Shown here piece by piece: positions 9,080-37,100 of a stretch of 64,000 nt of DNA; the first letter of the stretch is position 1, and each line of letters begins with the position of its first letter. Under the pieces are notes generated by a model. That model was not told the origin of the DNA and did not search any database. It saw only the letters and a list, made by a program, of their open reading frames with translations. Source of the DNA: Alphaproteobacteria bacterium (GTDB lineage Bacteria > Pseudomonadota > Alphaproteobacteria > UBA828); the NCBI GenBank assembly GCA_963422645.2, contig CAXXVO010000006.1, positions 32,001 through 96,000 of the forward strand. The letters run 5' to 3'. Made by a program: the position numbers and the translations under genes.

Positions 9080-11134
9080 ATGAATGACATGTCGAGTGCG
9101 GCCGTTCGCGTCGCATGTGATGTCGGCGGCACGTTCACCGACGTGTGCGTCCTGGACGAAGCGACCGGCCAGATGCGCGTCGCCAAGACCCCAACAACGC
9201 CCGACCCCATCGACGGCGTGCTGGAGGGCATCAAGGCCGGCGGCGTCGACCTCAAGGACATGGTGCTCTTCGCTCATGGCACCACGCTCGCCACCAACGC
9301 GCTGATCACGCGCAACTTCCCGCCCGCGATCATGGTCACCACCAAGGGCTTCCGCGACGTGATCGAGATCCGCCGCGGCACCCGAGACGACCTCTGGGAC
9401 ACCTACAAGGAGATGGCGCCGCCCTACATCAAGCGCCGCGACCGTCTGGTCGTCACCGAGCGCATCGACTACAGCGGCACGGTCATCGAGCCGGTGAACG
9501 AGGCGGAGGCGCGGGAAGCCGCGCGCATCATCAACAAGCGCGGCGTGAAGACCATCGCGGTCTGCTTCGCCAACGCCTTCGCCAACCCCGAGAACGAGCG
9601 CCACATGCGCGACATCCTCGAGGAGGAGGTTCCCGGTGCGTCGATCTCGCTTTCCAGCGAGATCATGCCGGAGATCTTCGAGCACGAGCGCTTCTCGACG
9701 ACGGTGGCCAACGCGGTGCTCGCCCCCGTCGCGGGCGAATACGTGACGCGCCTCGCTACGCGGCTCCGCGAGGGCGGCTACGACGAGGACATTCTGCTGT
9801 TGCATTCCGGCGGCGGCGTGATGACCGAAAGCACGGCGTCGAAGTTCGCGGCCCGGCTCGCCGCCTCGGGCATCGCGGCGGGCGCGATCGCGAGCCGCTT
9901 CGTCGCCCAGCTTGCGGGCTACGAGAACTCGATCAGCCTCGACATGGGCGGCACCAGCACCGACGTCTCGCTCTGCGACCGGGGCAATCTGCGGGTCACC
10001 ACCGACTGGTACGTGCAGTACGGCTATCCGATCTGCTTCCCCAGCATCGAGGTGCTGACCATCGGCGCCGGCGGCGGCTCACTCGCCTGGATCGACGGAG
10101 CGAACTCGCTCCGCAACGGGCCGCAGTCGGCCGGCTCCATGCCGGGGCCCGCCTGCTACGGACGGGGCGGCGTGGAGCCCACCAATTCCGACGCCAACAT
10201 CGTCCTCGGCCGCATCAGCGACCGGCTTGCCGGCGGCGCCGTCACCCTCGACCGCGCGCTCGCCGAGGAGGCCATCAGGCGACGCGTGGCCGACCCGCTT
10301 GGGCTCACGGTGCAGGAGGCCGCGGTCTCCATCCTCCAGGTGGCGAACGCCAACATGGCGGACGCCGTGCGCCTGGTCTCGATCCGGCGCGGCTACGACC
10401 CGCGCGACTTCGCGCTCACCGTGTTCGGTGGCGCCGGGCCGCTCCATGGCGTGGCGCTGGCCCGCGACCTCTCGATCCCGACCGTGCTAGTGCCGCCGAA
10501 CCCCGGCGTCACCTCGGCGCTCGGCTGCCTGCTGGTGGATATCAAGCACGACATGTCGCAGATGTATCTGCGCTCCACCGATGACGCGAAGATCGAGGAA
10601 ATCGAGCAGACCTTCAGCGCGCTGGAGGACGAAGGCCGCCAGCGGCTTCTGCACGAAGGCGTCACCGAGGACCGGATGCAGTTCCAGCGCGTCGTCGACA
10701 TGCGCTATCTGGGCCAGTGGCGCTCCATGTCGATTGCGCTCGCCGCGGATGCGAACTCGCTCGACGCTGCGATCGCCCAGTTCCACGACGAGCACGGCCG
10801 CGAGCACAACTATTCCAGACCCGACGCGCCGGTCGAAATCTATCGCCTCACCGTCACCGCCACAGGGCTCTCGCAAAAGGCCGAATTCGCCAAGGAGGAG
10901 ATGGACCACTCGGCGCCGACGCCTGAGACCGAGCGGCTCGTGGTTTTCGACGAAGATCCTGAGCCGATCATGACCCCGATCTACAACCGCGACGGTCTGC
11001 ACGCAGGCGCAGTCGTCGAAGGGCCGGCGATCATCGAGCAGCTCGACTCCACGGTGCTGGTGCCGCCGGGTCTCAAGGCCGAGGTCGACCCCTGGCACAC
11101 CATTGTCATGCACATTCCGCAAGACGAGAGCTGA
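9080..11134 (+). CDS. Hydantoinase A/oxoprolinase (ATP-dependent lactamase, ATP-binding subunit)
   Basis: DVGGTFTD, HGTTLATNA, DMGGTSTDV, GAGGGS, GPQSAG..PGPACYG. Confidence 0.92.
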   Translation: MNDMSSAAVRVACDVGGTFTDVCVLDEATGQMRVAKTPTTPDPIDGVLEGIKAGGVDLKDMVLFAHGTTLATNALITRNFPPAIMVTTKGFRDVIEIRRGTRDDLWDTYKEMAPPYIKRRDRLVVTERIDYSGTVIEPVNEAEAREAARIINKRGVKTIAVCFANAFANPENERHMRDILEEEVPGASISLSSEIMPEIFEHERFSTTVANAVLAPVAGEYVTRLATRLREGGYDEDILLLHSGGGVMTESTASKFAARLAASGIAAGAIASRFVAQLAGYENSISLDMGGTSTDVSLCDRGNLRVTTDWYVQYGYPICFPSIEVLTIGAGGGSLAWIDGANSLRNGPQSAGSMPGPACYGRGGVEPTNSDANIVLGRISDRLAGGAVTLDRALAEEAIRRRVADPLGLTVQEAAVSILQVANANMADAVRLVSIRRGYDPRDFALTVFGGAGPLHGVALARDLSIPTVLVPPNPGVTSALGCLLVDIKHDMSQMYLRSTDDAKIEEIEQTFSALEDEGRQRLLHEGVTEDRMQFQRVVDMRYLGQWRSMSIALAADANSLDAAIAQFHDEHGREHNYSRPDAPVEIYRLTVTATGLSQKAEFAKEEMDHSAPTPETERLVVFDEDPEPIMTPIYNRDGLHAGAVVEGPAIIEQLDSTVLVPPGLKAEVDPWHTIVMHIPQDES

Positions 11135-11156
11135 CGCAGAGAGCGAGGAGAAGAAG

Positions 11157-13172
11157 ATGAGCAAGAACAGAGAAGGCTACACGCTCGACCCCGTGACCTT
11201 CGAGGTGCTCAAGAACGCCTACGTCAACATCGTCGACCAGATGGCGGAGCAGATCTTCCGCACCTGCTACTCCTTCGTGATCTGGTCGCGGGACTTCTCG
11301 TCCGCGATCTGCGATACCGAAGGCAACACCGTCATGCAGGGCTCGGGCGATATCGCCGCCCACGTGGGCACGCTGCACTACACGGCACAGGCCGTGATCA
11401 ACAAGTTCGGCGACGACATCCACCCCGGCGATACCTTCGTCGTGAATGATGTCTACCAGGGCGGCACCCACTTCAACGACACGCGCATCGTCCGCCCCAT
11501 CTTCTACAAGGGCATCCACCTCGGCTTCTCCCAGGCCAACGGACACTGGGCTGATGTCGGCGGCGCGGTGCCGGGCTCGTTCAACGTGAGCGCGCTCGAC
11601 CACATGGCCGAGGGGCTCCGCATCACGCCGGTCCGGGTCTACAGCAAGGGCCAGTACCTCTCCGACGTGGCCGAACTGATCGCCAACAACACCCGCGCAC
11701 CCGCCGACATCATCGGCGACCTGCAGGCCCAGGCCGAGGCCTGCAACGTCGCCGAGCGTGAGGTCTGCCGGCTCTGCGACAAGTACGGCGTCGACGTGAT
11801 CCAGACCTCCTTCGCCGAGGTGCAGGACTACGTCGAGACGCTGACCCGCCAGCGCATCGCCAAGCTGCCCGACGGCGTGTGGGAGACCGAGGACTACATC
11901 GACGTGGACCCGGTCGCCGGCGAGGGGCTGATCCCGATCCGCATCAAGATGACCATCGACGGCGACAGCGTGCACTACGATCTCTCCCGCTCGCATCCGA
12001 CGACGATCTCGACCTTCCTCAACTGCTGCTACGGCGGCGCGTTTGCGGCGATCGTCGCCGGCACCAAGATGCAATCGCCCGATATCCCGTTGAACTCGGG
12101 CTTCTACCGGGTGGTCACCGTCGATCTCGGGCCGTTAGGAACTGTGGTCAACGCGGACTGGCCCACGCCGGTCGCGGGCTTCTGCTCGGGCCCGTTCGAG
12201 AAGATCATGAACTCGGTGTTCGAGCTCTGGGCGGAAATCTTGCCCGAGCGCGCCATGGCCTGCACCTTCAACCTCGAGTACCTGCTGATCGGCGGGCGCG
12301 ATGGCCGCAAGGAGGATCGCCCCTACTTCATGTGGTACGACTGGATGGTGGGCGGCTGGGGCGCGCGCAACGGCCGCGACGGCTGGGGGGCGACCGGGCC
12401 GGTCTTCGGAGTCCAGCTCGGCACGCAGCCCTTCGAGGGGCAGGAGCGGCTCGCCCCGGTGCTGACCACCGGCCACGAGCTCATCGTCGATTCCGGCGGA
12501 CCCGGCAACTCGCGGGGCGGCCTCGGCGTCGAGAAGGGCGCGATCCTGACCAAGGCGGAGCGCTCGGTCGTCTCCTACTGCTGCGACCGCGAGCGCTCGG
12601 TGACCTGGGGCCTCTGGGGCGGGCTGCCGTCGATCCCGCACGGCGTCTGGGTCAATCCCGGCACCCAGGGCGAGCGCTACCTGGGCTCGATCTTCTCGGG
12701 TGTGCCGCTAGAAGCCGGCGACACCGTGACGCGGCCGTCCGCCGGTGGCGGCGGTCTCGGCGATCCCCTTACTCGCGACCTCGAAACGGTGTGCGAGGAC
12801 GTGGCCGACGGCTACGTCTCCATCGAGCGGGCCAAGAAGGACTATGGCGTCGTGATCTGTGAAATCGATGCCGATCTCGCGGAATACGAGGTCGACGAAG
12901 CGGCGACCGAGGCCGTGCGCGAGCGTATCCGTGCGCAGCGCCACGGTTTGCTCGACGTGGATGCCGAAGACATCGCGGCCAAGTACCGCAGCAAGGAACT
13001 CGACGCACTCGACCTGGTCCGCCAGTACGGCGTGATCGTGGACTGGGGCACCGGCGAGCTCCTGCCCAACACCACCCGCCAGTTCCGCGACATGTTGAGG
13101 CGCCGGACTGCGGCCCATTGGGAGGTGCCGGGCCAGGCGCGCAACGAGCAGCCGACGCTCCGCGTCGCCTAG
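11157..13172 (+). CDS. Hydantoinase B/oxoprolinase subunit
   Basis: LDPVTFEV, DFSSAI, NDVYQGGTHFND, GHWADVGG, GGGGLGDP; GAGGAG RBS upstream. Confidence 0.92.
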   Translation: MSKNREGYTLDPVTFEVLKNAYVNIVDQMAEQIFRTCYSFVIWSRDFSSAICDTEGNTVMQGSGDIAAHVGTLHYTAQAVINKFGDDIHPGDTFVVNDVYQGGTHFNDTRIVRPIFYKGIHLGFSQANGHWADVGGAVPGSFNVSALDHMAEGLRITPVRVYSKGQYLSDVAELIANNTRAPADIIGDLQAQAEACNVAEREVCRLCDKYGVDVIQTSFAEVQDYVETLTRQRIAKLPDGVWETEDYIDVDPVAGEGLIPIRIKMTIDGDSVHYDLSRSHPTTISTFLNCCYGGAFAAIVAGTKMQSPDIPLNSGFYRVVTVDLGPLGTVVNADWPTPVAGFCSGPFEKIMNSVFELWAEILPERAMACTFNLEYLLIGGRDGRKEDRPYFMWYDWMVGGWGARNGRDGWGATGPVFGVQLGTQPFEGQERLAPVLTTGHELIVDSGGPGNSRGGLGVEKGAILTKAERSVVSYCCDRERSVTWGLWGGLPSIPHGVWVNPGTQGERYLGSIFSGVPLEAGDTVTRPSAGGGGLGDPLTRDLETVCEDVADGYVSIERAKKDYGVVICEIDADLAEYEVDEAATEAVRERIRAQRHGLLDVDAEDIAAKYRSKELDALDLVRQYGVIVDWGTGELLPNTTRQFRDMLRRRTAAHWEVPGQARNEQPTLRVA

Positions 13173-13189
13173 ATACCGCCCGTCGTCCC

Positions 13190-13879
13190 GTGAGCGTCGT
13201 CCTGGTCACGGGCGCCGATCGCGGCATCGGCAACGCGCTCTGCTGCGCCTGTCACGCGCGCGGCGACGACGTAATCGCGGCCTGCCTGGGTGACTCAGAC
13301 GAGCTGCGGGCTCTGGGGATCCGGGTGGAGCCCGGCGTAGACGTGACCTCCGACGAGGCGGTGCGGGGCTTCGCCGGCAGGCTCGCGGCCACCGGCACGG
13401 TCCTCGATCTCTTGATCAACAATGCCGGGATTGCGGAGCGGGACTCGCTCGGCGCGCTCGACTACGACGCCATCCGGCGGCAGCTCGAGGTCAACACGCT
13501 GGGGCCTCTTCGCGTGACCGAGGCGTTGCTGGGCCGCCTCACGCCGGGGTCAAAGGTCGCCTTCATCACCAGCCGGATCGGCTCGCTCGGCGACAACCAA
13601 TCGGGCGGGCTCTACGGCTACCGCATCTCCAAGTGCGCCGCCAACATGGTGGCGGTCAACCTCGCCCACGATCTAGCGAAGCGGGGCATCGCCGCCGTGG
13701 TCCTGCACCCCGGCATGGTGGCGACCGCCATGACCTTCGACGACGAGCGCCATGAGGCCCGTCCTCCCGAGGATGCCGCCGCCGCCCTGATCGAGCGGAT
13801 CGATCAGGTGGAGCGGGTGGAGCCCGGCACACCGCCCGCCTTCTGGCACGCGCCCGAGCGCACCATCATCCCGTGGTGA
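13190..13879 (+). CDS. Short-chain dehydrogenase/reductase (CsgA-like)
   Basis: TGADRGIG, NNAG, YRISK catalytic motif, HPGMVAT. Confidence 0.88.
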   Translation: MSVVLVTGADRGIGNALCCACHARGDDVIAACLGDSDELRALGIRVEPGVDVTSDEAVRGFAGRLAATGTVLDLLINNAGIAERDSLGALDYDAIRRQLEVNTLGPLRVTEALLGRLTPGSKVAFITSRIGSLGDNQSGGLYGYRISKCAANMVAVNLAHDLAKRGIAAVVLHPGMVATAMTFDDERHEARPPEDAAAALIERIDQVERVEPGTPPAFWHAPERTIIPW

Positions 13880-14069: not shown

Positions 14070-15059
14070 TCAGACATCCAGGCCGAGGCTCCGATGGAAG
14101 GCCTCGACGGCGGCGAGGGCAGCGTCGGCCGCGTCGTCCTGCTCCGGCAGGGCGCCGCAGTAGGCGGAGACTGCCTCGCGCGCGATCGGCATCCACTTCT
14201 CGATCCAGCCGCTGAGAACGGAAGCGTTCGCTTCGTTTTCCAGCGAGAACGCGACGAGGGCCGCGCTCCAGCGCCGCGAGCGCTCGCTGTCCCGCATCTG
14301 GTTGTCGGCCAGCAGCCCGAGCAGCCCGTCGTCGAAGCGGCGCCCGATGCGGCCGAGCTGCCGGTGCGCTTCGTCCGCAGCCGGCTTCGCCACCAGATTG
14401 AGCGCCACGAAGTGCTCGCCCCAGTCGTAGGTGGCGAGGGTCTTCTCCAGCAGCGCGCGAAAGCCCTGCCAGGCGGGCTCCTCCTCCCAGGTCCGGCGCT
14501 CGGTCGTCCCGAACCCGCGCGAAGGATGCGCCCGCTGAAGCTCGCGCGCGCGGTAGGCGCAGCGCGAGAGCCAGCGGAACTCGTCGCCGTCCTGAAAGCC
14601 GGCGCAGGCCGTGATCGTGCTCGCCGGCGCGATCTGCACCAGATAGGCCGCGCCCATCTGCAGCGCCATCTGCAGGAAGCGCCGGGGCGTGTAGAGCCGC
14701 TCCAGCACGTCGAGCCACGCGTCTGACAGCGTCGCGTCGTGGCCGATGTCGTTGTGCTCGTCGAGCAGGCCGTCGACGTACTGCTCCTGCTGGTCCTGAA
14801 TCCGCGTATAGACTCGGTAGATCATCTCATCCGGATCGCGGAAGCCTTCCCAGTCCGGATGCTGCAGCGGGCTCTCCGAGACGTTGCGCTTGTAGAACTC
14901 GTTCATCCCCAACAGCGGCGCCGGCGAAAGCTCGTAGGCCTGGTCCGGGTGCCGCGTGCGGGTCTGCAGGTTGGTGGTGACGACTTCGTACTCGCTCGGC
15001 CGCCGCCTCTTCTTGGCGAGGCCGCTCCACGTCTTCATGCCTTTGACTTCGACCGTCAC
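14070..15059 (-). CDS. Soluble di-iron monooxygenase beta subunit (TmoE-like)
   Basis: KTWSGL..RRRPSEYEVVT, DWEGFRDPD, TYDWGEHFVALNLVAKPA. Confidence 0.92.
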   Translation of the reverse strand: MTVEVKGMKTWSGLAKKRRRPSEYEVVTTNLQTRTRHPDQAYELSPAPLLGMNEFYKRNVSESPLQHPDWEGFRDPDEMIYRVYTRIQDQQEQYVDGLLDEHNDIGHDATLSDAWLDVLERLYTPRRFLQMALQMGAAYLVQIAPASTITACAGFQDGDEFRWLSRCAYRARELQRAHPSRGFGTTERRTWEEEPAWQGFRALLEKTLATYDWGEHFVALNLVAKPAADEAHRQLGRIGRRFDDGLLGLLADNQMRDSERSRRWSAALVAFSLENEANASVLSGWIEKWMPIAREAVSAYCGALPEQDDAADAALAAVEAFHRSLGLDV

Positions 15060-15070
15060 GGTACTGCCCC

Positions 15071-15364
15071 CTAGCGTGCGACGAACCGGATGCCGTCCGG
15101 CTCGGTGCGAATGAACCCTGCGAAGCTCGGCATGTTCGACTCGATGTCGCCGAGGGTGACGGTGCGGCCGAGCACGTCGCCCACCGTCTCGAAGCGCACG
15201 AAGCACTCGTCCGCGACCTTGATCCTGATGTAGGACGCGTGGGTCTCGGTGATGACCTCGCATCCCTCGTTGTCCTCCTGGATCGCTTCGACCACCGCGT
15301 CCGCGATATCGCCCGCGCGCATCACGGGACCCACGAGATTGCCGGCGTCGTCTGCCGTCGTCAT
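15071..15364 (-). CDS. Monooxygenase coupling/effector protein (TmoD/MmoB/DmpM family)
   Basis: NLVGPVMRAGDIADAVVEAIQEDN...SFAGFI; AAGGAG RBS upstream. Confidence 0.92.
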   Translation of the reverse strand: MTTADDAGNLVGPVMRAGDIADAVVEAIQEDNEGCEVITETHASYIRIKVADECFVRFETVGDVLGRTVTLGDIESNMPSFAGFIRTEPDGIRFVAR

Positions 15365-15390
15365 GCTCGACTTCTCCTTCGGAAACGCGT

Positions 15391-15651
15391 TCAGCCGGCG
15401 CGGTAGATTTCCACGGACTCCATCTCGACGAAGCCGGCATCGGCGATGGTGAGATGGTCGGGTAGCGGGTCTTCGCTGCCCTGCACCCTCACCTTGAGAA
15501 CTGCATCGGGCGGGAAGGGCGCCACCAGGACGCCCGCGACCTGGTCCGCGACCTTCCCGGCCAGCACCGCCATGGTGTCGCCGGTGTCGAAGACCTGCAC
15601 CTTGTAGCCGTAGTCGCCTTCGAGCAGGACGGCGAGCGGGATATCGGCCAT
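15391..15651 (-). CDS. Monooxygenase gamma subunit (TmoB-like)
   Basis: IPL...EGDY...DTM...VAG...TIADAG pattern, 86 aa, directly after alpha. Confidence 0.85.
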   Translation of the reverse strand: MADIPLAVLLEGDYGYKVQVFDTGDTMAVLAGKVADQVAGVLVAPFPPDAVLKVRVQGSEDPLPDHLTIADAGFVEMESVEIYRAG

Positions 15652-15660
15652 TGCGCCCCC

Positions 15661-17181
15661 CTACTCGGCCGCCGCCGCGCGCGGCACGTCGTAGCCGTCG
15701 ATCCACTGATAGTCGTAGCCGCAGACGCCGCGCTCCTCGAAGCTCTGGCCCATGTACTCGTAGAACCCATCGGGGCCCGGCGGCACGGTGCCGTCCAGCA
15801 ACCGGTCGATGATGCTGCGATGCCCCTGGTAGCGGGCGGGCTCCAGCTCGAAGACCCACTTGCAGGGCTCGCAGCAGAAGTGATAGCGCCGGCCTTCGTG
15901 GTCGAGGTGGAAGTCCGTGGCGTTCCATGTGCGCCCGTTCACCTGCCGGCCGACGCCCGCGATCCCGGTCACCTCCAGTCCGCACATGTTGCAGATCAGC
16001 GGCGGAACCACCGGCACCGTCTTCTCGAAGCGGCCCTCGCGGATATTGTCGATCACCATGTCCCAGCACTTGCCGTAGGTGTCGTTCCAGCCCGGATACT
16101 TCTCCTCCAGCCAGTCGCGTTCGGCCGGCGAGACGCAGGCGATGGGCCGCCACCACTGGGTCGCGCGGTAGACGTAGATACCGATCTGCTGACAATGGTG
16201 GAAGGTCTCGATATCGTGCAGGAAGTAGTCCCAGTACCAGGGCAGGTCGAGGCCCAAGGCCTTGATGTTGCGGCCGAACTGATCGACCACCCATTCGTGC
16301 ATGAACTCCTTGAGCGAATGCTCGCGAAACTCCAGCGGCGTGTAGTAGTCCATGGAGATGCCGCTCAGCGCGGAGAACTGCTTCCATATGCGCCAGAAGC
16401 CGATGTCGATCAGCTGCTGCGCCTCCGCCTTGCGCCCGTTCTCGATCATGATGCTGATGAGCGGCGTGCCGATCTGTGCGTGCCGCGCCTCGTCGGTCTG
16501 GATGCTTTGCAGCATGGTGGCGAAGGTGTGATCGCCGGCCTTCGCCGCGTCCGCAGAGAGGCCGATGAATTGCAGATTGGTAAAGCCCTGCTCAAAGGCG
16601 AAGTTGGTCATAATCGCGGCGCTGATCGCATCGCGGGTGTGCTCGACGTCGTCCAGCGCGTGGCGCAGGCTGATGATGATCCAGTTCTCGGTCTTGGACG
16701 ACTTATGCGCCCAGTCGAAGACGCGGTCCTGCTTGATGAACTCGTAGGCGAAATACATCTGGATCTGGCCGTGACGCATTTCGTCCAGGGTGCCGAAGGT
16801 CGCCATGTTGCGCATCCCCGGCGCGCGTGAGAACCGGGTCATGCGGGCGAAGGCCGACGCCGAGTGGAACTCGGCGAAGCCGATCGGGCTGAAGTGCAGC
16901 GCGAGCAGGGCCTTCCAGTGCGGCGTGGTGTTCTTGAAGTAGTCCGCCCGTGCCAGCGCCGACTTCACCGAATAGGCGCCGATGTCCTTATCGCGCTGGG
17001 TCTCGACATAGTCCCGGTAGCAGACCTTGTAGGGCTCGTCGAAGGTCTCCCACTGCTCGACCGGAATCCCGAAGGGATCGCTGAGTTCGGGCGGGAAAAT
17101 CTCCTCCTCGGCGACGTAGCCGGGAGTCCAGTTGGTATCCCGCGTGAGGTCGTACCATTCGTGCATCTCGAGCAGCGCCAT
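15661..17181 (-). CDS. Soluble di-iron monooxygenase alpha subunit (TmoA-like, group 1) with YHS domain
   Basis: WYDLTRDTNWTP, DEMRH and DEARH iron motifs, FEQGFTNLQF, ERDWLEEKYPGWN. Confidence 0.95.
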   Translation of the reverse strand: MALLEMHEWYDLTRDTNWTPGYVAEEEIFPPELSDPFGIPVEQWETFDEPYKVCYRDYVETQRDKDIGAYSVKSALARADYFKNTTPHWKALLALHFSPIGFAEFHSASAFARMTRFSRAPGMRNMATFGTLDEMRHGQIQMYFAYEFIKQDRVFDWAHKSSKTENWIIISLRHALDDVEHTRDAISAAIMTNFAFEQGFTNLQFIGLSADAAKAGDHTFATMLQSIQTDEARHAQIGTPLISIMIENGRKAEAQQLIDIGFWRIWKQFSALSGISMDYYTPLEFREHSLKEFMHEWVVDQFGRNIKALGLDLPWYWDYFLHDIETFHHCQQIGIYVYRATQWWRPIACVSPAERDWLEEKYPGWNDTYGKCWDMVIDNIREGRFEKTVPVVPPLICNMCGLEVTGIAGVGRQVNGRTWNATDFHLDHEGRRYHFCCEPCKWVFELEPARYQGHRSIIDRLLDGTVPPGPDGFYEYMGQSFEERGVCGYDYQWIDGYDVPRAAAAE

Positions 17182-17250
17182 TCGATCGTCTCCCTGGTCG
17201 GTACCGGGCGATGCGGGCAGCGCCCCGGTGGCGCCGCCCGCACTCCAACC

Positions 17251-18291: not shown

Positions 18292-18334
18292 GTTGGTTTC
18301 TCCCTTTCCGTGTGTTTGACCGTGGAGGCGGGCC

Positions 18335-19180: not shown

Positions 19181-19191
19181 CCCGCCGCCTC

Positions 19192-20024: not shown

Positions 20025-20115
20025 CGCATCGGACGGCGGCGTGCCCCCGGCGTGCCCTTGGGCCATTCATGTCATCCCGGAGGCCGGCGGTCATGAGCGG
20101 AGCGCCCTGCCCGCA

Positions 20116-21351: not shown

Positions 21352-21389
21352 GGCGGCTCGTCTCCCCTTTTCTTCTTATGCGTTGGCCG

Positions 21390-30106: not shown

Positions 30107-32475
30107 GGGCTCCGCGCCAGAGCCTCATCGGCGCCTCGCTCCCGCGCAAGGAGGACGATCGCCTGCTGCAAGGCGACGGCCTCTTCACCGACGACGTGCA
30201 ACTGGCCCACCAGCTGGAGATGGCGGTGGGCCGCTGCCCCTTCCCCCGCGCTGCGATCGGTGCGATCGACGTGGCTCAAGCCCGCGCCCTCCCCGGCGTC
30301 AGGCACATCCTGACGGGCGCCGGCGTGCGGGCCGCGAGCGAGCCGCTGACGGTGTTGCGGCCGGTGCCCGGCGCGCCCCTGCTGCCCTACTACGCGCTGG
30401 CGGGTGAAGAGGCGATCCACGAGGGCCAGCCGGTGGTGAGCGTGGTGGCGACCAGCCGCGCCATTGCCGAGGACGCGCTGGAGCTCATCGACATCGACTA
30501 CGAGCCGTTGCCGCATGTGACCGACACGCTCGGCGCGCTCGCCGACGACGCGCCGGTGCTGCATCCCGAGACGCTGCCGTCCAACCTGCTGACCAGCAAC
30601 GTGGACCGCGCCGGGGAGCCGGAGAGCCGCATGGCTGCGGCCCCGGTCGTGGTCGAGGGACGCTTCCACGTGAACCGGGTGAGCGCGCTCCCGATGGAGG
30701 CGCGCGGCATCGTCGCCCATTGGCGTGCCGGCGCCCGCGCGCTGGAGGTCTACGCCTCTACCCAGACGCCGCATCTGATCCGGCAGCAGTTGGCGGAGTG
30801 CCTGCCCCTCGACGAGGGGTGCATTCGGGTCATCGCCTCCGATGTCGGCGGCGGCTTCGGCATGAAGCTCGGCCTCTATCCCGAGGACGTGCTGGCAGCG
30901 CTGCACGCCATGGCAATCCGGCGTCCGGTCAAGTGGATCGAGGACCGCCTGGAATTCTTCCGCGCCAGCACCCAGGCGCGCGAGGCCGTGCACGACCTTC
31001 GCATCGGTGCCGAGGCCGACGGCCGCATCGTCGCGGTCACCAACCAGTACACCACCGACCTCGGCGCCTGGAACTCGACCTACGGCTCGGCGCAGCTCTC
31101 GAGCGTGGTCTTCACCGGCCCTTACAAGGTGGCCGATGCGGCGGTCGAGCGCCGCGTCGCGCTCACCAACAAGACGCCGGTCGGGGCCTATCGCGGCTAC
31201 GGCCAGCCGGAGGTCAACTTCGCCCTGGAGGTGTTGCTCGACCGGCTGGCGCGCCGGCTCAAGATCGACCCGCTGGAGCTAAGGCGACGGAACTTGCTCC
31301 GGCCGGAGGACCTGCCCTGGACCACGCCGAGCCGCGCGGTCTACGACAGCGGCGATTACCTGAAGACCCTGCAGCTGGCCGCCGACGCGGTCAATTACGA
31401 CGCCCATCGCGCCGGCCGCCGCGACAACCGGGGCGACGAGCGCCTGACGGGTATCGGCTTCGCCTCCTTCGTCGAGCGCACGGGCTATGCCAGCGCGCGC
31501 TTCCTCGCAGGCCGCGGCTCCCGCTTCGGCGCCCACGAGAGCGTGACCTTGCGGGCCAACCGCTCCGGCGGCATCGACCTCTACACCGGGGTCTCCACCT
31601 TCGGCCAGGGCAGCGAGACGGCCTTCGCCCAAGTCTGCGCCGAGGTCTTCGGCATCGACTACGAAGCCATCACCGTCCATGCCGGCGACAGCGGTGCATC
31701 GCCGCTCAACACCGGCGCCTTCGCCTCACGCACCCTGATCGCGGCTGCCGGCGCCATCCGCGAGGCCGCGGACGCGCTGCGCAACAAGACCCTCCGCATC
31801 GCGGCCATGGTCCTGCAATCGACTCCGGGCGCGCTGGAGGTGAGCGGGCGCGCCGTGCACGTAGCAGACGAACCCGGCCGCACCGTGCCGCTCGCCGACA
31901 TCTTCACCCGCGCGATCATCGGGCAGGGAATTCCGGAAGACGAGGAGCCGGGCCTGGAGGCGGCCGCGCACTTCGAGCCCACGCATGCGTCGTTTTCCTT
32001 CGGGACCGCAGCAGCGTTGGTCTCGGTCGAGGCCGAGAGCGGCGAGTTCGACGTGGAGCGCTTCGTGATGGCGCACGACTGCGGCGTCGTGGTCAACCCG
32101 CCGCTGGTGGAAGGCCAGGTGCGGGGCGGGCTGGTGCAGGGGCTGGGCGCGGCGCTGGCGGAGGAGCTTCGCTACGACGAAGGCACCGGCCAGCTCGTCA
32201 GCGGCAGCATGCTGGACTACTTCGCGCCCACCATCATGGACGTGCCGCCGATCGACCTGCTGCACACCGAGCTCCCCTCCACGGTCACGCCCTTCGGCGT
32301 GCGAGGCGTGGGCGAGGTCGGCACGATTCCGCCGGCCGCCGCCGTCACCAACGCCATCTGCGATGCGCTGGCGGACTACGGCGTCGAAATCTCGACCTTG
32401 CCGCTCACGCCGGAGCGTGTCTGGCAGGCGCTGGCAGCGGCAAGAGGCGCCCGCGCGGGCCACGAGCCAGGATGA
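30103..32475 (+). CDS. Xanthine dehydrogenase-family molybdopterin-binding subunit 1
   Basis: RKEDDRLL.G, DVGGGFGMK, AYRGYG, GQVRGG, RGVGEVG. Confidence 0.93.
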   Translation: MRAPRQSLIGASLPRKEDDRLLQGDGLFTDDVQLAHQLEMAVGRCPFPRAAIGAIDVAQARALPGVRHILTGAGVRAASEPLTVLRPVPGAPLLPYYALAGEEAIHEGQPVVSVVATSRAIAEDALELIDIDYEPLPHVTDTLGALADDAPVLHPETLPSNLLTSNVDRAGEPESRMAAAPVVVEGRFHVNRVSALPMEARGIVAHWRAGARALEVYASTQTPHLIRQQLAECLPLDEGCIRVIASDVGGGFGMKLGLYPEDVLAALHAMAIRRPVKWIEDRLEFFRASTQAREAVHDLRIGAEADGRIVAVTNQYTTDLGAWNSTYGSAQLSSVVFTGPYKVADAAVERRVALTNKTPVGAYRGYGQPEVNFALEVLLDRLARRLKIDPLELRRRNLLRPEDLPWTTPSRAVYDSGDYLKTLQLAADAVNYDAHRAGRRDNRGDERLTGIGFASFVERTGYASARFLAGRGSRFGAHESVTLRANRSGGIDLYTGVSTFGQGSETAFAQVCAEVFGIDYEAITVHAGDSGASPLNTGAFASRTLIAAAGAIREAADALRNKTLRIAAMVLQSTPGALEVSGRAVHVADEPGRTVPLADIFTRAIIGQGIPEDEEPGLEAAAHFEPTHASFSFGTAAALVSVEAESGEFDVERFVMAHDCGVVVNPPLVEGQVRGGLVQGLGAALAEELRYDEGTGQLVSGSMLDYFAPTIMDVPPIDLLHTELPSTVTPFGVRGVGEVGTIPPAAAVTNAICDALADYGVEISTLPLTPERVWQALAAARGARAGHEPG

Positions 32476-32485
32476 GGTAGCCGAG

Positions 32486-33160
32486 ATGGAGTATCCCGCC
32501 CGCGGGCGCTATGCCAACGCCGGCCTCTCGCCCTTGGAGGATGACGCGATGCAGTGGCTGGACGGCTTCTACCAGCTTGAGCATCTGATCGCGACGCGGA
32601 TGTGGGCCATCAAGATCTGCCCGGAGGCCTCGCCCGAGCTCAAGTTCGCCGCGTTGACGCACGACGCCGAGCGCTTCTTCCCCGGCGGGCCTTCCAGCAC
32701 GCCGACCAACGGCTTCGACGATCCCGACTACCTCTTCGCGCACTCCACCCGCTCGGCGAATATTGTCGAGGAATGGCTGCGCAGCCGCGCGCCGGCGCCG
32801 GACGAGGCGTTCAACCGACGCGTGCGCCGGCTCATCCTGCGGCATGAGATAGGCGGCGGCTGGGAGGCCGACTTCGTGCAGGCGGCGGATTCGCTCTCGT
32901 TCCTGGAGACCCTGGACTGGATTACCCTCGATTGGGTGCGGGAAGGCCGCTACACCACCGCGCAAGCACGGGAGAAGCTGGACTTCACCGTGGAGCGGAT
33001 CCGGCCCTCCATCGCCGTCGCCGCGGCGCTCCCGCTCTACGAGAGCGCCGTGCGCGCCCTGGACGCTGCCGAGGACTGCACCATGGACCTGCAACGGCGG
33101 CGCGAGCTGGCCGGCAGCCGGCGATTCCTGTTCGGGCTCCGGCAGTCTCAAACAGGATAA
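32486..33160 (+). CDS. HD-domain-like protein (DUF4202-like)
   Basis: EH...AALTHDAER...AHSTRS...RHE....ADSLSFL. Confidence 0.6.
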   Translation: MEYPARGRYANAGLSPLEDDAMQWLDGFYQLEHLIATRMWAIKICPEASPELKFAALTHDAERFFPGGPSSTPTNGFDDPDYLFAHSTRSANIVEEWLRSRAPAPDEAFNRRVRRLILRHEIGGGWEADFVQAADSLSFLETLDWITLDWVREGRYTTAQAREKLDFTVERIRPSIAVAAALPLYESAVRALDAAEDCTMDLQRRRELAGSRRFLFGLRQSQTG

Positions 33161-33227: not shown

Positions 33228-34109
33228 ATGTATCCAGCGCCGATCGAGGCCTATTTCCTGCCGCGGACCATCGATGAGGCGCTGACCTGCCTCGCCCAGG
33301 CGGGGGACGGCGCCATGTTCATCGCCGGCGGCATGAGCCTGATGCAGGCGATGAAGGCGCGGCTGGCGACGCCGCATGCGCTCATTGACCTCAACGAGGT
33401 CGAGGCGCTCAGCGGCCTCGCCAAAGGGCCGCACGGCGTGACCGTGCGCCCCCTCACCCGCTACCGCGAGCTCACCGTGACCTCGGCCCTGCACGGCGCT
33501 CTGCACGCGATCGGCGATGCGGCGGCGACGGTGGGCGACCGCCAAGTGCGCAACGCCGGTACCATCGGCGGCAGCCTCTGCTGGAATTACGTCGCCTCGT
33601 GCCTGCCCAATGTCTGCCTCTGCCTCGACGCCACGCTTGTTCTCGCCTCGCTGAAGGGTGGTGAGAGAAGCGTGCCCATCGACGAGTTCCTGATCGGGCC
33701 GCTCGAAACCGCGCGGCAGGACGACGAGCTCCTGATTGAGATCAATTTCCCCTCCGCGCCGTATCGCGGCGCCGGCAGCGCCTACAGAAAATACGGCGCG
33801 ACGGTGGACGGACTGCCGATCGTCGGCATTGCCGCCTCCATTGAGGTCGACGAGGCTGGGGATTGCACGGACGCGCGCCTCAGCGTCGGCGGAATTCTGC
33901 CGACCGCCCAGCGATTCGATGGCGTGAGCGACCTTCTGTGCGGCCGGCCGGCGACGCCCGAGGCCTTCGCCGAGGCGGCGGGCGCGGCAGCCGATGCCAT
34001 CGAGACGCAGACCGACACTCTCGCCAGCGCCCACTATCGCAAGGTGCTCATCCGCACGCTCGGTCGCGATGTGCTGACCCTGGCCCATGCCCGCGCGACG
34101 GGAGGGTAA
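33228..34109 (+). CDS. Molybdenum hydroxylase FAD subunit (CoxM-like) 2
   Basis: IAGGMSL..MK.RL, QVRNAGTIGGS. Confidence 0.92.
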   Translation: MYPAPIEAYFLPRTIDEALTCLAQAGDGAMFIAGGMSLMQAMKARLATPHALIDLNEVEALSGLAKGPHGVTVRPLTRYRELTVTSALHGALHAIGDAAATVGDRQVRNAGTIGGSLCWNYVASCLPNVCLCLDATLVLASLKGGERSVPIDEFLIGPLETARQDDELLIEINFPSAPYRGAGSAYRKYGATVDGLPIVGIAASIEVDEAGDCTDARLSVGGILPTAQRFDGVSDLLCGRPATPEAFAEAAGAAADAIETQTDTLASAHYRKVLIRTLGRDVLTLAHARATGG

Positions 34110-34113
34110 CGCC

Positions 34114-34629
34114 GTGGAGAAGACGATCACCGTCACCGTCAACGGCAGGGCGTATACGCGAGAAGTGCCGCTCCGCCTCCTCCTCGTCGATTTCATCCGC
34201 GACGAGTGCGGCCTCACCGGCACGCATATCGGTTGCACCTACGAAGGGCGCTGCGGGGCCTGCACGGTGCAGATCGACGGACGCGCCAACAAGTCCTGCA
34301 TGAAGCTCGCGGTGCAGGCCGACGGCAGGGAGATCACCACCATCGAGGGGCTCGGCACCGCTGACAAGCTGCACCGTTTGCAGCAGACGTTCCGCCGCTA
34401 TCACGCGCTGCAGTGCGGATTCTGCACGAGCGGGATTCTGATGAACGCGGCCGACTTCCTGGACGAGAACATCAACCCGACCGAGGACGAGGTGCGCCGC
34501 ACGCTGGTTGGAAACCTGTGCCGCTGCACCGGGTACAGCCACATCGTCGAGGCGATCCTCGCGGCCTCCGCCATGCGTCACGGGCTGAACCCCGAAGCGC
34601 CGCCGGCAGAAACCGAGACCGGGCCATGA
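34114..34629 (+). CDS. 2Fe-2S subunit (CoxS-like) 2
   Basis: GCTYEGRCGAC...KSC, QCGFCTSG, NLCRCTGY. Confidence 0.92.
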   Translation: MEKTITVTVNGRAYTREVPLRLLLVDFIRDECGLTGTHIGCTYEGRCGACTVQIDGRANKSCMKLAVQADGREITTIEGLGTADKLHRLQQTFRRYHALQCGFCTSGILMNAADFLDENINPTEDEVRRTLVGNLCRCTGYSHIVEAILAASAMRHGLNPEAPPAETETGP

Positions 34630-37100
34630 CCGCGACCGCGACCGGCGAGACACGCTGGATCGGCCGCTCGCTGAGGCGCCGCGAGGATGCCCGCCTACTC
34701 ACCGGTCGGGGCGAATTCCTGGCCGATGTGCGCGTCCCCGACTGCCTGCATCTCTGCTTCGTCCGCTCGAGCCATGCGCATGCCAGGATCAGAGACATCC
34801 GGCTCGAGACGGCGCTGGCAATGCCTGGCGTGGTGGGCGCCATCACCGGGGCCGAGCTCGCGACGGAGATGCAGGGCCAGAGGATTCCGGTGCTGATCCC
34901 CGCTTTTGCCGCCAAGTACCGGCAGTACTGGCCGCTCGCGGTGGACGAGGTGTACTGGCACGGCGAGCCGCTCGCCGCGGTCGTGGCCCAAGACAAGTAT
35001 CTCGCCGAGGACGCCGCCGCCGCGGTGGAGGTCGATTACGAGGAATTGCCCGTGATCACCGACGCCGAGGCGGCGCTCTGCGACGACTCTCCGCGCGTCT
35101 ACGACGACTGGGACGACAACGAGATCTTCGCGACGAGCTTCACCGGCGGCTTCGAAGCGGATCGAATCGCCAGGAACGACGCTGAGGTCGAGGCGTTGTT
35201 CGCGCAAGCCCACGTGGTGCTCAAGCAGCGCTTCCGCACCCAGCGCTGCGGCGTCTGCCCGATCGAGACCCGGGGGGCGCTTGCACTCTGGAGCGAGACC
35301 GACGGGCTCACCGTCCACCTCACGACCCAGCGCCCCCACATCGAACGCCTCGCGCTCGCCGACCTGCTCGAGCTTTCGACCGCCGAGGTCCGGGTCGTCG
35401 CGCCGCGCGATCAGGGCGGCGGCTTTGGCGTCAAGGCGCCCTTCTACCGCGAGCATGTCGTGGTCTGTCATCTCGCGCGCAAGCTCGGGCGCCCGGTGCG
35501 CTGGATCGAGACCCGCGAGGAGCACCTGATGACGGTCAGTCAGGAGCGCGATCAGATCCACGATCTCGAAATCGCGGCGGACAACGAGGGACGCATCCTC
35601 GCGCTCCGCAATCGCGGCATCGGCGACGTGGGCGATGGCCGTCAGGGGGTCTATTGGGGCTTCGTCATGCCCTCGCTGGGCTCGGTGATGCTGCCCAACG
35701 CCTATGCGATCGGCCATGCGGACATCAAGCTGCGCTGTGCCGTCACCAACAAGACCTGCCTCAGCCCGTCCCGCTCGTTCGGGGCCTTTCCGACACGCTT
35801 CGCGCTCGAACGCGGCCTCGACATGCTGGCGCGCAGGCTCGGCATGGAGACGGCTGCGCTGAAGCGCAGGAACCTGGTCACCGACTTTCCCTTCACCAGC
35901 GTGACCGGGGTTCATCACGACAGCGGCGACTACGTGAAGGCGTGGGACGCGCTGATCGACAGGGTCGATCTCGCCGGCTTTCGCGCGCAGCAGGCCGACG
36001 CCCGCGCCTCCGGCCGCTATCTCGGGATCGGCTTCGCCTGCGGTGCCGAGTTCTCCGGCATCCCCTCCGACGTGCTCGTGCCGCTCGAGAACCAGCCCGG
36101 CTACGGCGTCGTCACCATGCGCATCGACCCGCGCGGCAAGGTCGCCATCCATGAGGGCGACGCGCCGCAGGGGCAGAGCCACGAGACCACGATGGCACAG
36201 GTCGCCGCCGAGATATTCGGCATTCACCCGGATGACGTCAGCGTCCACCACGGCGACACCGGCACCACGCCGCTCAGCTCGGGCACGGTCGGCGCGCGCG
36301 GCGCGTCCTACACCGTTGCCGCCATCGCCGAAGCTGCGACCGCACTCAAGGCCAAGATGGCACGCTACATGAGCCACGATCACGGGCTGGAGGGTGCAGA
36401 CCCCGCCGATTTCAGCTTCCGGGGCGGCGCAGTCATTTACGAGAAGGACGGCAACATCCGGCGCGCGTTCGGCGCGCTCGCGGATCGCATCGTGATGGGC
36501 TCGATCAACCTGCCGCCCGGCGAGAGTCCGGGGCTCGAGCACACGGCCTATTTCGAGGCCCCCAAGCCGATGATCTGCTTCACGGCGCAGGCCGCCAAGG
36601 TCGAGGTCGACATCGAAACCGGGCAGTTCACCATCCTCGACTACGCCACCTGCGAAGACGTCGGCACGGTCATCAACCCGATCGTCGTCGAGGGCCAGGT
36701 TCAAGGCGGCGTGGTGCAAGGCATGTCGAACGCGATGTTCGAGGAGTTCCTTTACGACGAGAACGGCCAGCAACTGACTGCGGACTTCGAGAACTACCGC
36801 CTCGCCTCCGCGGCGGATGTCCCGAATGTGACGGTAGGCCATGCGCCGACGCCCTGCCCGGACCATCCGCTCGGCGTTCGCGCAGTCGGCGAAGGCCGGC
36901 CGGGGCCAGTGCCGGGTGCGCTCGCCAACGCCATCTGCGACGCCCTCGCGCCTTTCGGCGTCGAGATCACGACACTTCCCCTCAAGCCCGAGATGATCCT
37001 GGCGCTGATCGAGGCCGGCCGCATCCACTTCACCTCGGCTTACCCCGACGACGCCCTCTTCCGCCAGCTCGCAGGACGTCTCGCCGCAGCAGGCCCGTGA
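34626..37100 (+). CDS. Xanthine dehydrogenase-family molybdopterin-binding subunit 2 (atypical active-site loop)
   Basis: RREDARLLTG, QGGGFGVK, PSRSFG, GQVQGG, RAVGEG. Confidence 0.9.
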   Translation: MTATATGETRWIGRSLRRREDARLLTGRGEFLADVRVPDCLHLCFVRSSHAHARIRDIRLETALAMPGVVGAITGAELATEMQGQRIPVLIPAFAAKYRQYWPLAVDEVYWHGEPLAAVVAQDKYLAEDAAAAVEVDYEELPVITDAEAALCDDSPRVYDDWDDNEIFATSFTGGFEADRIARNDAEVEALFAQAHVVLKQRFRTQRCGVCPIETRGALALWSETDGLTVHLTTQRPHIERLALADLLELSTAEVRVVAPRDQGGGFGVKAPFYREHVVVCHLARKLGRPVRWIETREEHLMTVSQERDQIHDLEIAADNEGRILALRNRGIGDVGDGRQGVYWGFVMPSLGSVMLPNAYAIGHADIKLRCAVTNKTCLSPSRSFGAFPTRFALERGLDMLARRLGMETAALKRRNLVTDFPFTSVTGVHHDSGDYVKAWDALIDRVDLAGFRAQQADARASGRYLGIGFACGAEFSGIPSDVLVPLENQPGYGVVTMRIDPRGKVAIHEGDAPQGQSHETTMAQVAAEIFGIHPDDVSVHHGDTGTTPLSSGTVGARGASYTVAAIAEAATALKAKMARYMSHDHGLEGADPADFSFRGGAVIYEKDGNIRRAFGALADRIVMGSINLPPGESPGLEHTAYFEAPKPMICFTAQAAKVEVDIETGQFTILDYATCEDVGTVINPIVVEGQVQGGVVQGMSNAMFEEFLYDENGQQLTADFENYRLASAADVPNVTVGHAPTPCPDHPLGVRAVGEGRPGPVPGALANAICDALAPFGVEITTLPLKPEMILALIEAGRIHFTSAYPDDALFRQLAGRLAAAGP

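Follow-up and report, generated by a model that had tools for sequence, protein, structure and literature searches.

A probable lineage-specific juxtaposition of four catabolic modules in a sponge-associated alphaproteobacterium

In Ensifer adhaerens HP1, according to the accessible text of a preprint (bioRxiv 10.1101/2020.01.08.898148), the 3hpd cluster encodes HpdA1–4, which comprises Mo, FeS, separate SRPBCC and FAD subunits, requires a phosphoenolpyruvate (PEP)-utilising and a PPDK-like protein (orf9 and orf10), and belongs to a system that converts 3-hydroxypyridine to 2,5-dihydroxypyridine. As that text reports, an orf10 knockout lost growth on 3-hydroxypyridine, two genes after hpdA1 were dispensable for 3-hydroxypyridine conversion in a heterologous host, a phosphorylated intermediate went undetected in the HP1 study, and the cluster also holds maleamate-pathway genes and a GntR regulator. 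The same source describes the 2-hydroxypyridine 5-monooxygenase HpdABCDE of Burkholderia sp. MAK1 as a di-iron monooxygenase of the soluble type (SDIMO) that acts on 2-hydroxypyridine. For the two-component phenol-phosphorylating dikinases PpsAB, CreHI and HpeHI, the accessible part of another article sets out pathways that phosphorylate, transform and later dephosphorylate (JBC 2025, PMC12167813). Here we analyse a 28-kb stretch in which an SDIMO unit, a dikinase–Mo-hydroxylase operon, a hydantoinase pair and a second Mo hydroxylase lie side by side, within a 64,000-nucleotide window of contig CAXXVO010000006.1 from the metagenome-assembled genome (MAG) of an alphaproteobacterium (assembly GCA_963422645.2).

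We read this stretch as a lineage-specific juxtaposition of four separable modules rather than as one dedicated island, with a probability of about 0.6. Along the window they are M3 (9014–13879; the hydantoinase pair HydAB and a short-chain dehydrogenase/reductase, SDR), M1 (14070–22357; the SDIMO, an ABC importer, a triple Rid protein or Rid3, an Lrp regulator and a CE4-family gene), M2 (22433–33160; a two-gene dikinase, a Mo hydroxylase with the molybdopterin subunit CoxL1, and an HD-like protein) and M4 (33228–37100; the second Mo hydroxylase, with CoxL2). Gene identities, gene breaks and the distribution of each module were observed in the analysis, and M1, M2 and M3 were found together only in a narrow clade (~90% nucleotide identity). 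SDIMO loci were collected by a pattern scan with one genome per species (79 loci, from the 80 best of 124 confirmed relatives), and M2 loci by a metagenome scan with an alignment of CoxL1 homologues (80 loci, the best of 205 relatives). The dikinase gene lies next to the SDIMO in 5 of the 79 SDIMO loci, all close kin, and SDIMO-unit genes adjoin the M2 Mo-hydroxylase operon in 2 of the 80 M2 loci. Two related genomes, G004 and G005, keep the SDIMO unit with the SDR (alpha subunit 94% and 91% identical, respectively) and have no CoxL1 orthologue anywhere (best match 39%); their HydB orthologues (96% and 90%) lie 380–670 kb from the SDIMO, among PhyH, DRL, isochorismatase and LIV-type ABC genes. 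The initial annotation of this DNA had joined all modules into one pathway for an N-heteroaromatic compound and had proposed co-occurrence in other genomes as the check. By these counts, by G004 and G005 and by the location of CoxL2 elsewhere (below), co-occurrence speaks mostly against one pathway, and a single pathway is not supported by it.

The host is an insertion sequence (IS)-rich, sponge-associated alphaproteobacterium, and the region is a patchwork of catabolic modules. The window (G+C ~67%) is part of a 296-kb contig in a 5.9-Mb assembly of 23 contigs with an estimated contamination of 8.48%. The closest loci among public genomes are from MAGs titled Rhodospirillales or Alphaproteobacteria bacterium, and two RNA runs with part of the stretch carry the label sponge metagenome. 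Real genes were chosen among the open reading frames (ORFs) by frame-specific GC3 and then named by Pfam and NCBIfam scans; what we infer about substrates, a phosphate cycle and regulatory coupling of the modules is worded conditionally.

Gene content and gene breaks

M1 comprises the following features (window coordinates and strand):

14070–15032, − strand: SDIMO hydroxylase beta subunit (Pfam Phenol_Hydrox; start inferred from the ORF translation)
15071–15364, − strand: SDIMO effector, MmoB/DmpM type (Pfam MmoB_DmpM, E 5.5e-22)
15391–15651, − strand: TmoB-like gamma subunit (Pfam TmoB, E 1e-16)
15661–17181, − strand: SDIMO hydroxylase alpha subunit (Pfam Phenol_Hydrox and YHS)
17251–18291, − strand: NMT1/SsuA-type substrate-binding protein, SBP (Pfam NMT1; NCBIfam SsuA family 93 bits, under the cut-off)
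18335–19150, − strand: ABC transporter ATPase (Pfam ABC_tran; ORF open to 19699)
19192–20094, − strand: ABC transporter permease (Pfam BPD_transp_1)
20116–21351, − strand: triple Rid (YjgF/L-PSP) fusion, 411 aa (Pfam Ribonuc_L-PSP in 3 stretches)
21390–22064, − strand: Lrp/AsnC regulator (Pfam HTH_AsnC-type and AsnC_trans_reg; true start probably further in)
22220–22357, + strand: remnant of a CE4 polysaccharide-deacetylase-family gene, residues 257–302 (46 codons; tblastn with the intact gene of locus L007)

The alpha subunit gives full-length matches to TouA of ToMO (1t0q_A, 618 bits) and to TmoA of T4MO (3dhg_A, 600 bits), and Glu/His at positions 104, 134, 137, 197, 231 and 234, which we take to be the iron ligands, are invariant in 13 sequences. 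The alpha, beta and gamma subunits of a group-2 SDIMO hydroxylase and the effector are all present in the window. No Rieske ferredoxin or reductase gene lies beside the window SDIMO, and the gap between the TmoB and effector genes is only 27 nt. The sole TmoC-like Rieske gene of the genome (C7:106949–107275) belongs to a second, fragmented SDIMO locus and the sole reductase-like match is at C3:141363–142340; in more distant SDIMO relatives, Rieske and reductase genes lie within the operon. The CE4 gene of M1 has been lost in the window genome and in the related genome G001, and is intact in nine other loci (L004, L005, L006, L048, L007, L008, L009, L011 and L123). The linked ABC importer, triple Rid, CE4 and Lrp genes point to a polar nitrogenous compound, rather than a hydrocarbon, as the substrate of M1. 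The unit would combine uptake and oxidation under Lrp control: an ABC importer would supply a polar nitrogen compound to the T4MO/ToMO-like di-iron hydroxylase, a ferredoxin and a reductase from other loci would have to deliver the electrons, and the triple Rid and CE4 proteins would process the hydroxylated product.

Further copies of several of these genes lie elsewhere in the genome. A second SDIMO (alpha 52–53% identical) occupies C7:106628–109110 with TmoB, Rieske and effector genes, its beta-like gene being on another contig (C9:6206–7153), and a second HydAB pair (59% identical; C7:117363–121402) lies 8 kb from it, beyond IS66 and Transposase_29 elements. We set this proximity aside as evidence of linkage because of the intervening elements and the beta gene on another contig. 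A second Rid3 (52% identical) and an intact CE4 gene (75–80% identical to those of L007 and L030) are found at C9:235714–237876, next to an Amidohydro_1 gene and IS elements; an arginase-family pair (64–76% identical to the pair of L012) lies ~60 kb from this second Rid3–CE4 on the same contig (C9:298933–301066).

M2 is encoded on the opposite strand, and its first gene is interrupted:

22433–22860, + strand: PEP-utiliser (PEPu; dikinase swivel/substrate subunit), 5′ part (NCBIfam PRK08296 profile positions 7–126)
22861–23911, + strand: IS1595-like element, transposase 22941–23906 (Pfam DDE_Tnp_IS1595)
23912–23944, + strand: 33-bp PEP-utiliser piece that separates the IS elements (located by local alignment with the unbroken gene in locus L032)
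23945–25716, + strand: IS110-like element, transposase 24273–25553 (Pfam DEDD_Tnp_IS110 and Transposase_20)
25717–27144, + strand: PEP-utiliser, 3′ part with the mobile His domain (Pfam PEP-utilizers; PRK08296 profile positions 134–608)
27141–28238, + strand: PPDK_N ATP-binding dikinase subunit (Pfam PPDK_N, E 2e-92)
28235–29107, + strand: CoxM-type FAD subunit (Pfam FAD_binding_5 and CO_deh_flav_C)
29104–29610, + strand: CoxG/SRPBCC subunit, a separate protein between CoxM and CoxS (Pfam COXG, E 2e-17)
29597–30106, + strand: CoxS-type 2×[2Fe-2S] subunit (Pfam Fer2_2 and Fer2)
30103–32475, + strand: CoxL-type molybdopterin subunit, CoxL1 (Pfam MoCoBD_1, MoCoBD_2 and Ald_Xan_dh_C)
32486–33160, + strand: HD-superfamily protein, 224 aa, the last M2 gene (Pfam DUF4202 E 0.0017 and HD E 0.061, both sub-threshold)

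The ORFs 22433–22939 and 25660–27144 match positions 7–126 and 134–608 of the PRK08296 profile (~600 residues), that is, consecutive parts, and are therefore the two halves of a single interrupted gene; alignment with the unbroken gene of a relative placed the IS junctions. The IS1595-like element has 18 further full-length copies in the genome and the IS110-like element at least 36 at no less than 99.9% identity. Because both elements have many near-identical copies, the insertions are recent, and both families have expanded massively and recently across the genome. A 1759-letter contig from a run of another study (X4) skips both elements (joints 22851→23911 and 23947→25716) without a mismatch on either side, and a contig of run X5 skips them likewise with some differences; an IS-free allele therefore exists in the population. 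Joined as in the X4 contig, the window pieces give 1887 nt and 628 codons with no internal stop. The PEP-utiliser gene is intact in relatives and in the X4 contig, and the protein of the assembled genome cannot be made whole. Given this split and the growth defect of the HP1 orf10 knockout, M2 is probably inactive in the window genome.

Neighbouring genes encode the PPDK_N and the PEP-utilizers domain, as separate ATP-grasp and His-swivel subunits, and the window PEP-utiliser is 43.6% identical to a subunit in the phenylphosphate synthase/carboxylase cluster of Azoarcus KH32C; judged by sequence, the dikinase belongs to the phenol-phosphorylating two-component family. The best PDB chain for CoxL1 is quinoline 2-oxidoreductase (1t3q_B, 504 bits). 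In the HD-like protein, H33, H59-D60, H86, H120 and D135 are invariant in 18 sequences, the Atlas score to DUF4202/HD clusters is 0.95, and the structural model (pLDDT 87) has top Foldseek matches that are all HD hydrolases (probability ~1.0, E at least 0.014, TM 0.4–0.67); these predicted HD-superfamily features would fit a hydrolase or an oxygenase alike. In the mechanism that we envisage for M2, the two-protein dikinase would phosphorylate a ring hydroxyl, the four-component Mo hydroxylase (FAD, SRPBCC, FeS and Mo) would then hydroxylate the N-heteroaromatic ring, and the terminal HD-superfamily protein would plausibly remove the phosphate.

M3 and M4 flank these two modules:

9014–11134, + strand: HydA, hydantoinase/oxoprolinase A subunit (Pfam Hydantoinase_A, Hydant_A_N and Hydant_A_C)
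11103–13172, + strand: HydB, hydantoinase B subunit (Pfam Hydantoinase_B, E 4e-145)
13118–13879, + strand: SDR, after HydB and convergent with the SDIMO beta gene (Pfam adh_short)
33228–34109, 34087–34629 and 34626–37100, + strand: CoxM2, CoxS2 and CoxL2 of the second Mo hydroxylase (Pfam)

The best NCBIfam models for HydA and HydB are caprolactamase alpha and beta (524 and 335 bits, far under the equivalog cut-off of 1000), and the closest PDB chains to HydB are caprolactamase (6yra_B) and N-methylhydantoinase (7hk5). The lactam-opening precedent named in the initial annotation was apt. We rejected a role of HydAB as an acetone/acetophenone carboxylase, in which the SDIMO product would pass from alcohol to ketone to carboxylation, because HydB scores only 68 and 122 bits there as against 289 bits to caprolactamase. 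The best NCBIfam model for the SDR is IsoH, at 271 bits below its cut-off of 350. M3 would be an ATP-dependent lactam/hydantoin hydrolase with an SDR.

All of the gene families named in the initial annotation are present where it placed them, by Pfam and NCBIfam, and HydAB and the SDR do converge from the + strand on the monooxygenase end. Its remark that no ring-cleavage dioxygenase is present also stands, for the ORFs scanned in 9–37 kb. Its inventory overlooked the split of the dikinase gene, the CoxG/SRPBCC subunit, the CE4 stump and the missing Rieske and reductase genes. The picture of tightly packed operons diverging from a separate Lrp gene has to be given up: the PEP-utiliser gene (22433...27144) is split by the IS1595-like and IS110-like elements, and Lrp lies on the strand of the Rid, ABC and SDIMO genes.

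Distribution of the modules

To count the partners of the SDIMO, we kept only loci whose alpha gene is flanked by at least 5 kb upstream and at least 6 kb downstream (52 loci) and dropped those with shorter flanks. Window proteins were mapped by tblastn, and conserved neighbours were defined by all-against-all clustering and named with Pfam. Grouped by identity to the window alpha subunit, the loci contain:

Alpha at least 90%, 6 loci: Rid3 6, CE4 4, SBP 6, SDR 6, HydA 3, PEP-utiliser 3, Rieske 0
Alpha 70–89%, 18 loci: Rid3 17, CE4 18, Lrp 17, Rieske 16, arginase-family pair 10, M20 6, PEP-utiliser 0
Alpha 59–69%, 12 loci: Rid3 9, CE4 10, M20 12, CobW 10, PEP-utiliser 0
Alpha 50–58%, 16 loci: Rid3 0, CE4 0, PEP-utiliser 0, HydA (at least 50% identity) 8

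The Rid3 orthologous family adjoins the SDIMO in 32 of the 36 well-flanked loci with alpha identity of at least 59%, and the alpha clade above about 59% identity is tied to the triple Rid and CE4 genes across Alpha-, Beta- and Gammaproteobacteria. This clade takes in MAGs titled Poriferihabitaceae, Spongiihabitans and Arenicellales. Sneathiella litorea (L030, 5054–19518) has a complete version of M1, with SBP/ABC/permease, alpha, TmoB, Rieske, effector, beta, reductase, Rid3, CE4, M20 and Lrp genes, flanked by two integrase genes. In ten loci (L012, L015–L019, L027, L040, L042 and L051) the SDIMO–Rid3–CE4 cluster is extended by M20 and CobW-type GTPase genes or by two arginase-family genes and HypA, often with an NMT1-type ABC importer and an Lrp regulator. 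The arginase pair and the Ni-chaperone-like gene hint at a guanidino compound; NCBIfam naming of the CE4, M20 and arginase-family partners gave no specific function. Genes of the NicX, NicD, NicE or NicF type occur in 0 of the 79 SDIMO loci, so nothing ties the M1 SDIMO to 2,5-dihydroxypyridine. Our limited literature search found no published description of an SDIMO–Rid3–CE4 cluster; M1 is a widespread, conserved and apparently undescribed unit. Its distribution, which includes several sponge-symbiont lineages, suggests a use of di-iron monooxygenases on nitrogenous compounds taken up by the cell rather than on hydrocarbons.

M2 is also found independently of the other modules. CoxL1 homologues at 67–78% identity occur in Alpha-, Beta- and Gammaproteobacteria and Actinobacteria, phyla over which 3hpd-type clusters are likewise scattered according to the available preprint text (bioRxiv 10.1101/2020.01.08.898148). 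Thirty M2 loci extend at least 7.5 kb upstream of CoxL1: in 17 of them the genes are collinear (PEPu–PPDK_N–CoxM–(CoxG)–CoxS–CoxL), in 10 the dikinase pair is divergent, and 3 show neither arrangement. The HD-like gene directly follows CoxL, under a strict offset rule, in 22 of the 51 loci with at least 1 kb downstream, and it follows a partly matched CoxL in at least three more (L124, L134 and L140); the HD-superfamily gene is a regular member of the hydroxypyridine dehydrogenase operon. Of the 33 M2 loci of at least 12 kb, 15 encode a 346-aa protein matching 2,5-dihydroxypyridine 5,6-dioxygenase (NicX, 7cn3; E 4e-94), and others of these neighbours are GntR/FCD regulators (16 loci), alpha/beta hydrolases (7), Amdase/Asp-Glu-racemase-family proteins (7), isochorismatase-family proteins (5) and amidases (8). 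The window block holds no NicX, maleamate-pathway or GntR genes. Seven genes, from dikinase through Mo hydroxylase to HD protein, thus form a compact, widespread and independent unit, which its neighbours tie to 2,5-dihydroxypyridine metabolism.

Other searches touched M2 as well. PEP-utiliser homologues were found in 5 of 400 genomes of class-level samples (41–49% identity), the four examined having no Cox or HD neighbours; a CoxL1 match at E ≤1e-220 was found in 1 of the 400 (49%), a count that says little because only two candidates per genome were scored. In the plasmid collection, which does not include the Ensifer HP1 plasmid as far as our search found, the best matches are 48.5% (PEP-utiliser) and 37.7% (CoxL1) identical. 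Contigs of the RNA run X19 resemble stretches of M2 at 90–95%; their occurrence in an RNA library does not prove transcription, and stretches that they leave uncovered carry no meaning. In ten loci with CoxL at 61–65% identity (L169, L172, L174, L182, L188, L192, L196–L198 and L200) the PEP-utiliser and PPDK genes diverge from CoxM–CoxG–CoxS–CoxL; loci of this architecture encode an IclR regulator as well as an amidase, CoxL is not followed by an HD-like gene, and L172 has two units side by side. The window genome itself encodes a NicX-like protein on another contig (C10:346432–347472; L203:9432–10472), which shares 46% identity with the L202 homologue of 2,5-dihydroxypyridine dioxygenase; its gene adjoins those of a Rieske ring-hydroxylating oxygenase alpha subunit, a sugar-type ABC transporter and an Amidohydro_2 protein, and this neighbourhood may be a separate hydroxypyridine module.

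For M3, nine loci from Actinomadura, Pseudonocardia and a Dehalococcoidia MAG (L057–L062 and L064–L066) have HydA and HydB (51–62% identical to the window pair) directly upstream of the SDIMO alpha gene, with a PucR-type regulator, an NCS1-type permease, an aldehyde dehydrogenase and a ferredoxin reductase nearby. M4 lies outside the block that is syntenic with the related genomes G001–G003, and the CoxL2 orthologues of G001–G004 are 50 kb to ~3 Mb from the cluster; CoxM2/S2/L2 adjoin the locus in the metagenome contigs L123 and L124. M4 is an unrelated second Mo hydroxylase, locus-linked only in the closest metagenome relatives.

Transposase genes stand on both sides of the cluster. Two tandem Transposase_29 genes (38974–41331 and 41490–43847, − strand) have equal Pfam scores and look like one duplicated IS, and 91 tblastn matches to the Transposase_29 protein are spread over the genome. 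A composite transposon was considered and rejected, as the tandem pair is only 34% identical to the Transposase_29 gene on the other flank (6491–8773). Beyond the cluster, at 44484–60170, lie more genes of catabolic appearance. They encode a GMC oxidoreductase, a class-III aminotransferase, PPK2, a fusion of an OYE-type flavoprotein with a Pyr_redox domain, a FAD_binding_2 protein, an RraA-like protein and an amidase (40% identical to its counterpart in the divergent M2-type clusters), and an IS21-like element splits a FIST-domain protein there.

One pathway or neighbouring modules

Several findings weigh against separable modules. In G001–G003 the window is collinear at ~90% nucleotide identity from 8985 to 33141, that is, from HydA through the HD-like gene, where synteny ends, and dN/dS against each of these genomes is 0.05–0.29 across all modules, with dS of 0.19–0.59 (19 validly framed gene segments; the PEPu_N segment was left out). 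Collinearity and purifying selection together indicate that the HydA-to-HD block was inherited together and kept functional in this subclade. The block is also conserved in the metagenome contigs L123 and L125, of which L123 is an undegraded twin: there the ABC genes, Rid3, Lrp and unbroken CE4 and PEP-utiliser genes are followed by the rest of M2, the HD gene, CoxM2/S2/L2 and two unnamed ORFs. In undegraded relatives M2 follows CE4 on its strand, opposite Lrp, with a gap of ~75–140 bp and without the usual GntR gene, which would fit capture into the M1 regulon. In a more distant contig, L131 (CoxL1 77%), HydA (78%) and HydB (89%) lie directly upstream of M2. On a plasmid of Rhodococcus ruber Y14 (L106, 5666–20793), a complete six-gene toluene monooxygenase (alpha 48%) is convergent with a Cre-like cluster, which gives an independent genomic precedent for an SDIMO followed by phosphorylation of the new hydroxyl; the layout would fit a route from toluene via p-cresol to a phosphorylated intermediate. 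The Cre-like cluster comprises HD, IclR, P450, PPDK_N, PEP-utiliser, SDR, ferredoxin, reductase, HD and aldehyde dehydrogenase genes, and IS1380 transposases flank the whole.

These findings, and the lack of a NicX-type gene inside the block, are what favours one integrated pathway in the window clade, as initially proposed. The SDIMO would hydroxylate an imported pyridine-type ring, the dikinase would phosphorylate the hydroxyl and the Mo hydroxylase would oxygenate beside the N to give a pyridone or lactam; the HD protein would then remove the phosphate, the SDR and HydAB would open the ring with ATP, and CE4 and Rid3 would release the nitrogen, all without a dioxygenase. We consider this unlikely. 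The adjacency is confined to a narrow clade, G004 and G005 carry M1 without M2 and have HydAB elsewhere, and in other genomes M1 keeps company with CE4 and M20/CobW or arginase-family genes and never with M2, whereas M2 is found with NicX and maleamate-pathway genes. A NicX-like gene is available on another contig of the genome, and the families concerned are rich in paralogues: with 35 Hydantoinase_B and 16 MoCoBD_1 matches in the genome, a hydantoinase or Mo hydroxylase next door is weak evidence on its own. Adjacency alone is, more generally, a poor guide to pathways in IS-rich, paralogue-rich symbiont genomes. It is likewise doubtful that a phosphorylation-dependent Mo-hydroxylase operon of the 3-hydroxypyridine type has been wired behind the CE4 gene of the SDIMO–Rid3 unit, at the same Lrp-facing promoter and next to a lactamase, to give a hydrolytic route, free of dioxygenases, for a host metabolite of the pyridine type. 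If this were true, the route would begin with O2-dependent hydroxylation and phosphate tagging, continue with water-dependent hydroxylation and dephosphorylation, and end with ATP-driven ring opening and deamination.

A narrower proposal makes one route of the SDIMO, the SDR and HydAB, with M2 as a bystander: the carbon beside the nitrogen of a cyclic amine would be hydroxylated, the SDR would turn the carbinolamine into a lactam, HydAB would open it with ATP, and Rid3 would handle imine side products. The SDR adjoins the SDIMO, convergent with it, in 6 of 6 loci with alpha identity of at least 90%, the genes of HydA, HydB and the SDR overlap and point the same way in the window, HydB belongs with the lactamases rather than with the ketone carboxylases, and HydAB of the same subfamily (51–62%) lies directly upstream of alpha in 8 of the 16 well-flanked loci at 50–58%, which come from Actinomadura, Pseudonocardia and one Dehalococcoidia MAG. 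This last arrangement also counts in favour of modules acting jointly. At intermediate distances the pair is missing, however: HydAB at 50% identity or more was found in 0 of 18 loci with alpha at 70–89% and in 0 of 12 at 59–69%. Moreover, the HydAB orthologue of G004 and G005 stands far from the SDIMO, where it is accompanied by a separate transporter and other enzymes, and the proximity of the paralogous SDIMO2 and HydAB2 is broken by IS66 and Transposase_29. We regard such a route as quite unlikely. An assembly artefact, in the form of a chimeric contig of the MAG, is a very improbable explanation of the adjacency; the estimated contamination and the many IS copies could mislead an assembler, but three separately assembled genomes have the same order, the independent contig L123 spans the ABC genes through CoxL2 and beyond, and contigs from runs of other studies cover the junctions.

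We therefore keep to a lineage-specific juxtaposition of separable modules. Of the pathway drawn from all modules in the initial annotation, what stands is a block conserved under purifying selection in G001–G003 and present in L123 and L125, and what does not is co-occurrence outside a narrow clade. The two precedents on which it leaned, HpdA1–4 with its need for PEP-utilising and PPDK-like proteins and the MAK1 SDIMO acting on 2-hydroxypyridine, are borne out by the accessible preprint text. As for novelty, the lineage-specific combination is real and no description of M1 was found, but M2 matches an already characterised kind of operon and is interrupted here. Overall, the observation was confirmed in part and its interpretation has partial support.

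Comparison with described systems

M1 resembles T4MO and ToMO in the full-length match of its alpha subunit and in having the TmoB-like, effector and beta genes in T4MO order. It differs in that the operon of the window clade has no Rieske or reductase gene (0 of 6 loci with alpha at 90% or more) and in its linkage to genes of the ABC importer, Rid3, the CE4 hydrolase and the Lrp regulator. With the 2-hydroxypyridine 5-monooxygenase of MAK1, an enzyme that acts on an N-heteroaromatic ring, it shares the SDIMO type; unlike what would be expected beside such an enzyme, the SDIMO loci hold no ring-cleavage genes for 2,5-dihydroxypyridine (0 of 79). M3 is like caprolactamase and N-methylhydantoinase in its HydA/HydB pairing, its best PDB and NCBIfam matches and its family-level Pfam domains, and unlike them in that the window pair scores below the equivalog cut-off and is one of 35 Hydantoinase_B matches in the genome.

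M2, too, has described counterparts. Like PpsAB, CreHI and HpeHI, its dikinase has an ATP-grasp subunit split from the His-swivel/substrate subunit; unlike theirs, its partner enzyme is a Mo hydroxylase and not a carboxylase or P450. As in HpdA of HP1, there are Mo, 2×[2Fe-2S], separate SRPBCC/CoxG and FAD subunits together with genes for PEP-utilising and PPDK-like proteins, the former intact in relatives and split in the window, and homologous operons (CoxL 61–78%) lie near NicX, maleamate-pathway-type and GntR genes. In contrast to HP1, M2 of the window clade stands behind CE4 and next to the SDIMO unit, without NicX, maleamate-pathway or GntR genes, and in the window its first gene is split by two IS elements. 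M2 is best read as a member of the HpdA-type kind, likened to it by composition and neighbours rather than by HP1 protein sequence. Its terminal HD-like gene holds the same position as orf8 in the available text of the 3hpd preprint. The conserved HD-superfamily gene is a candidate for the missing dephosphorylation step in the poorly understood HpdA mechanism.

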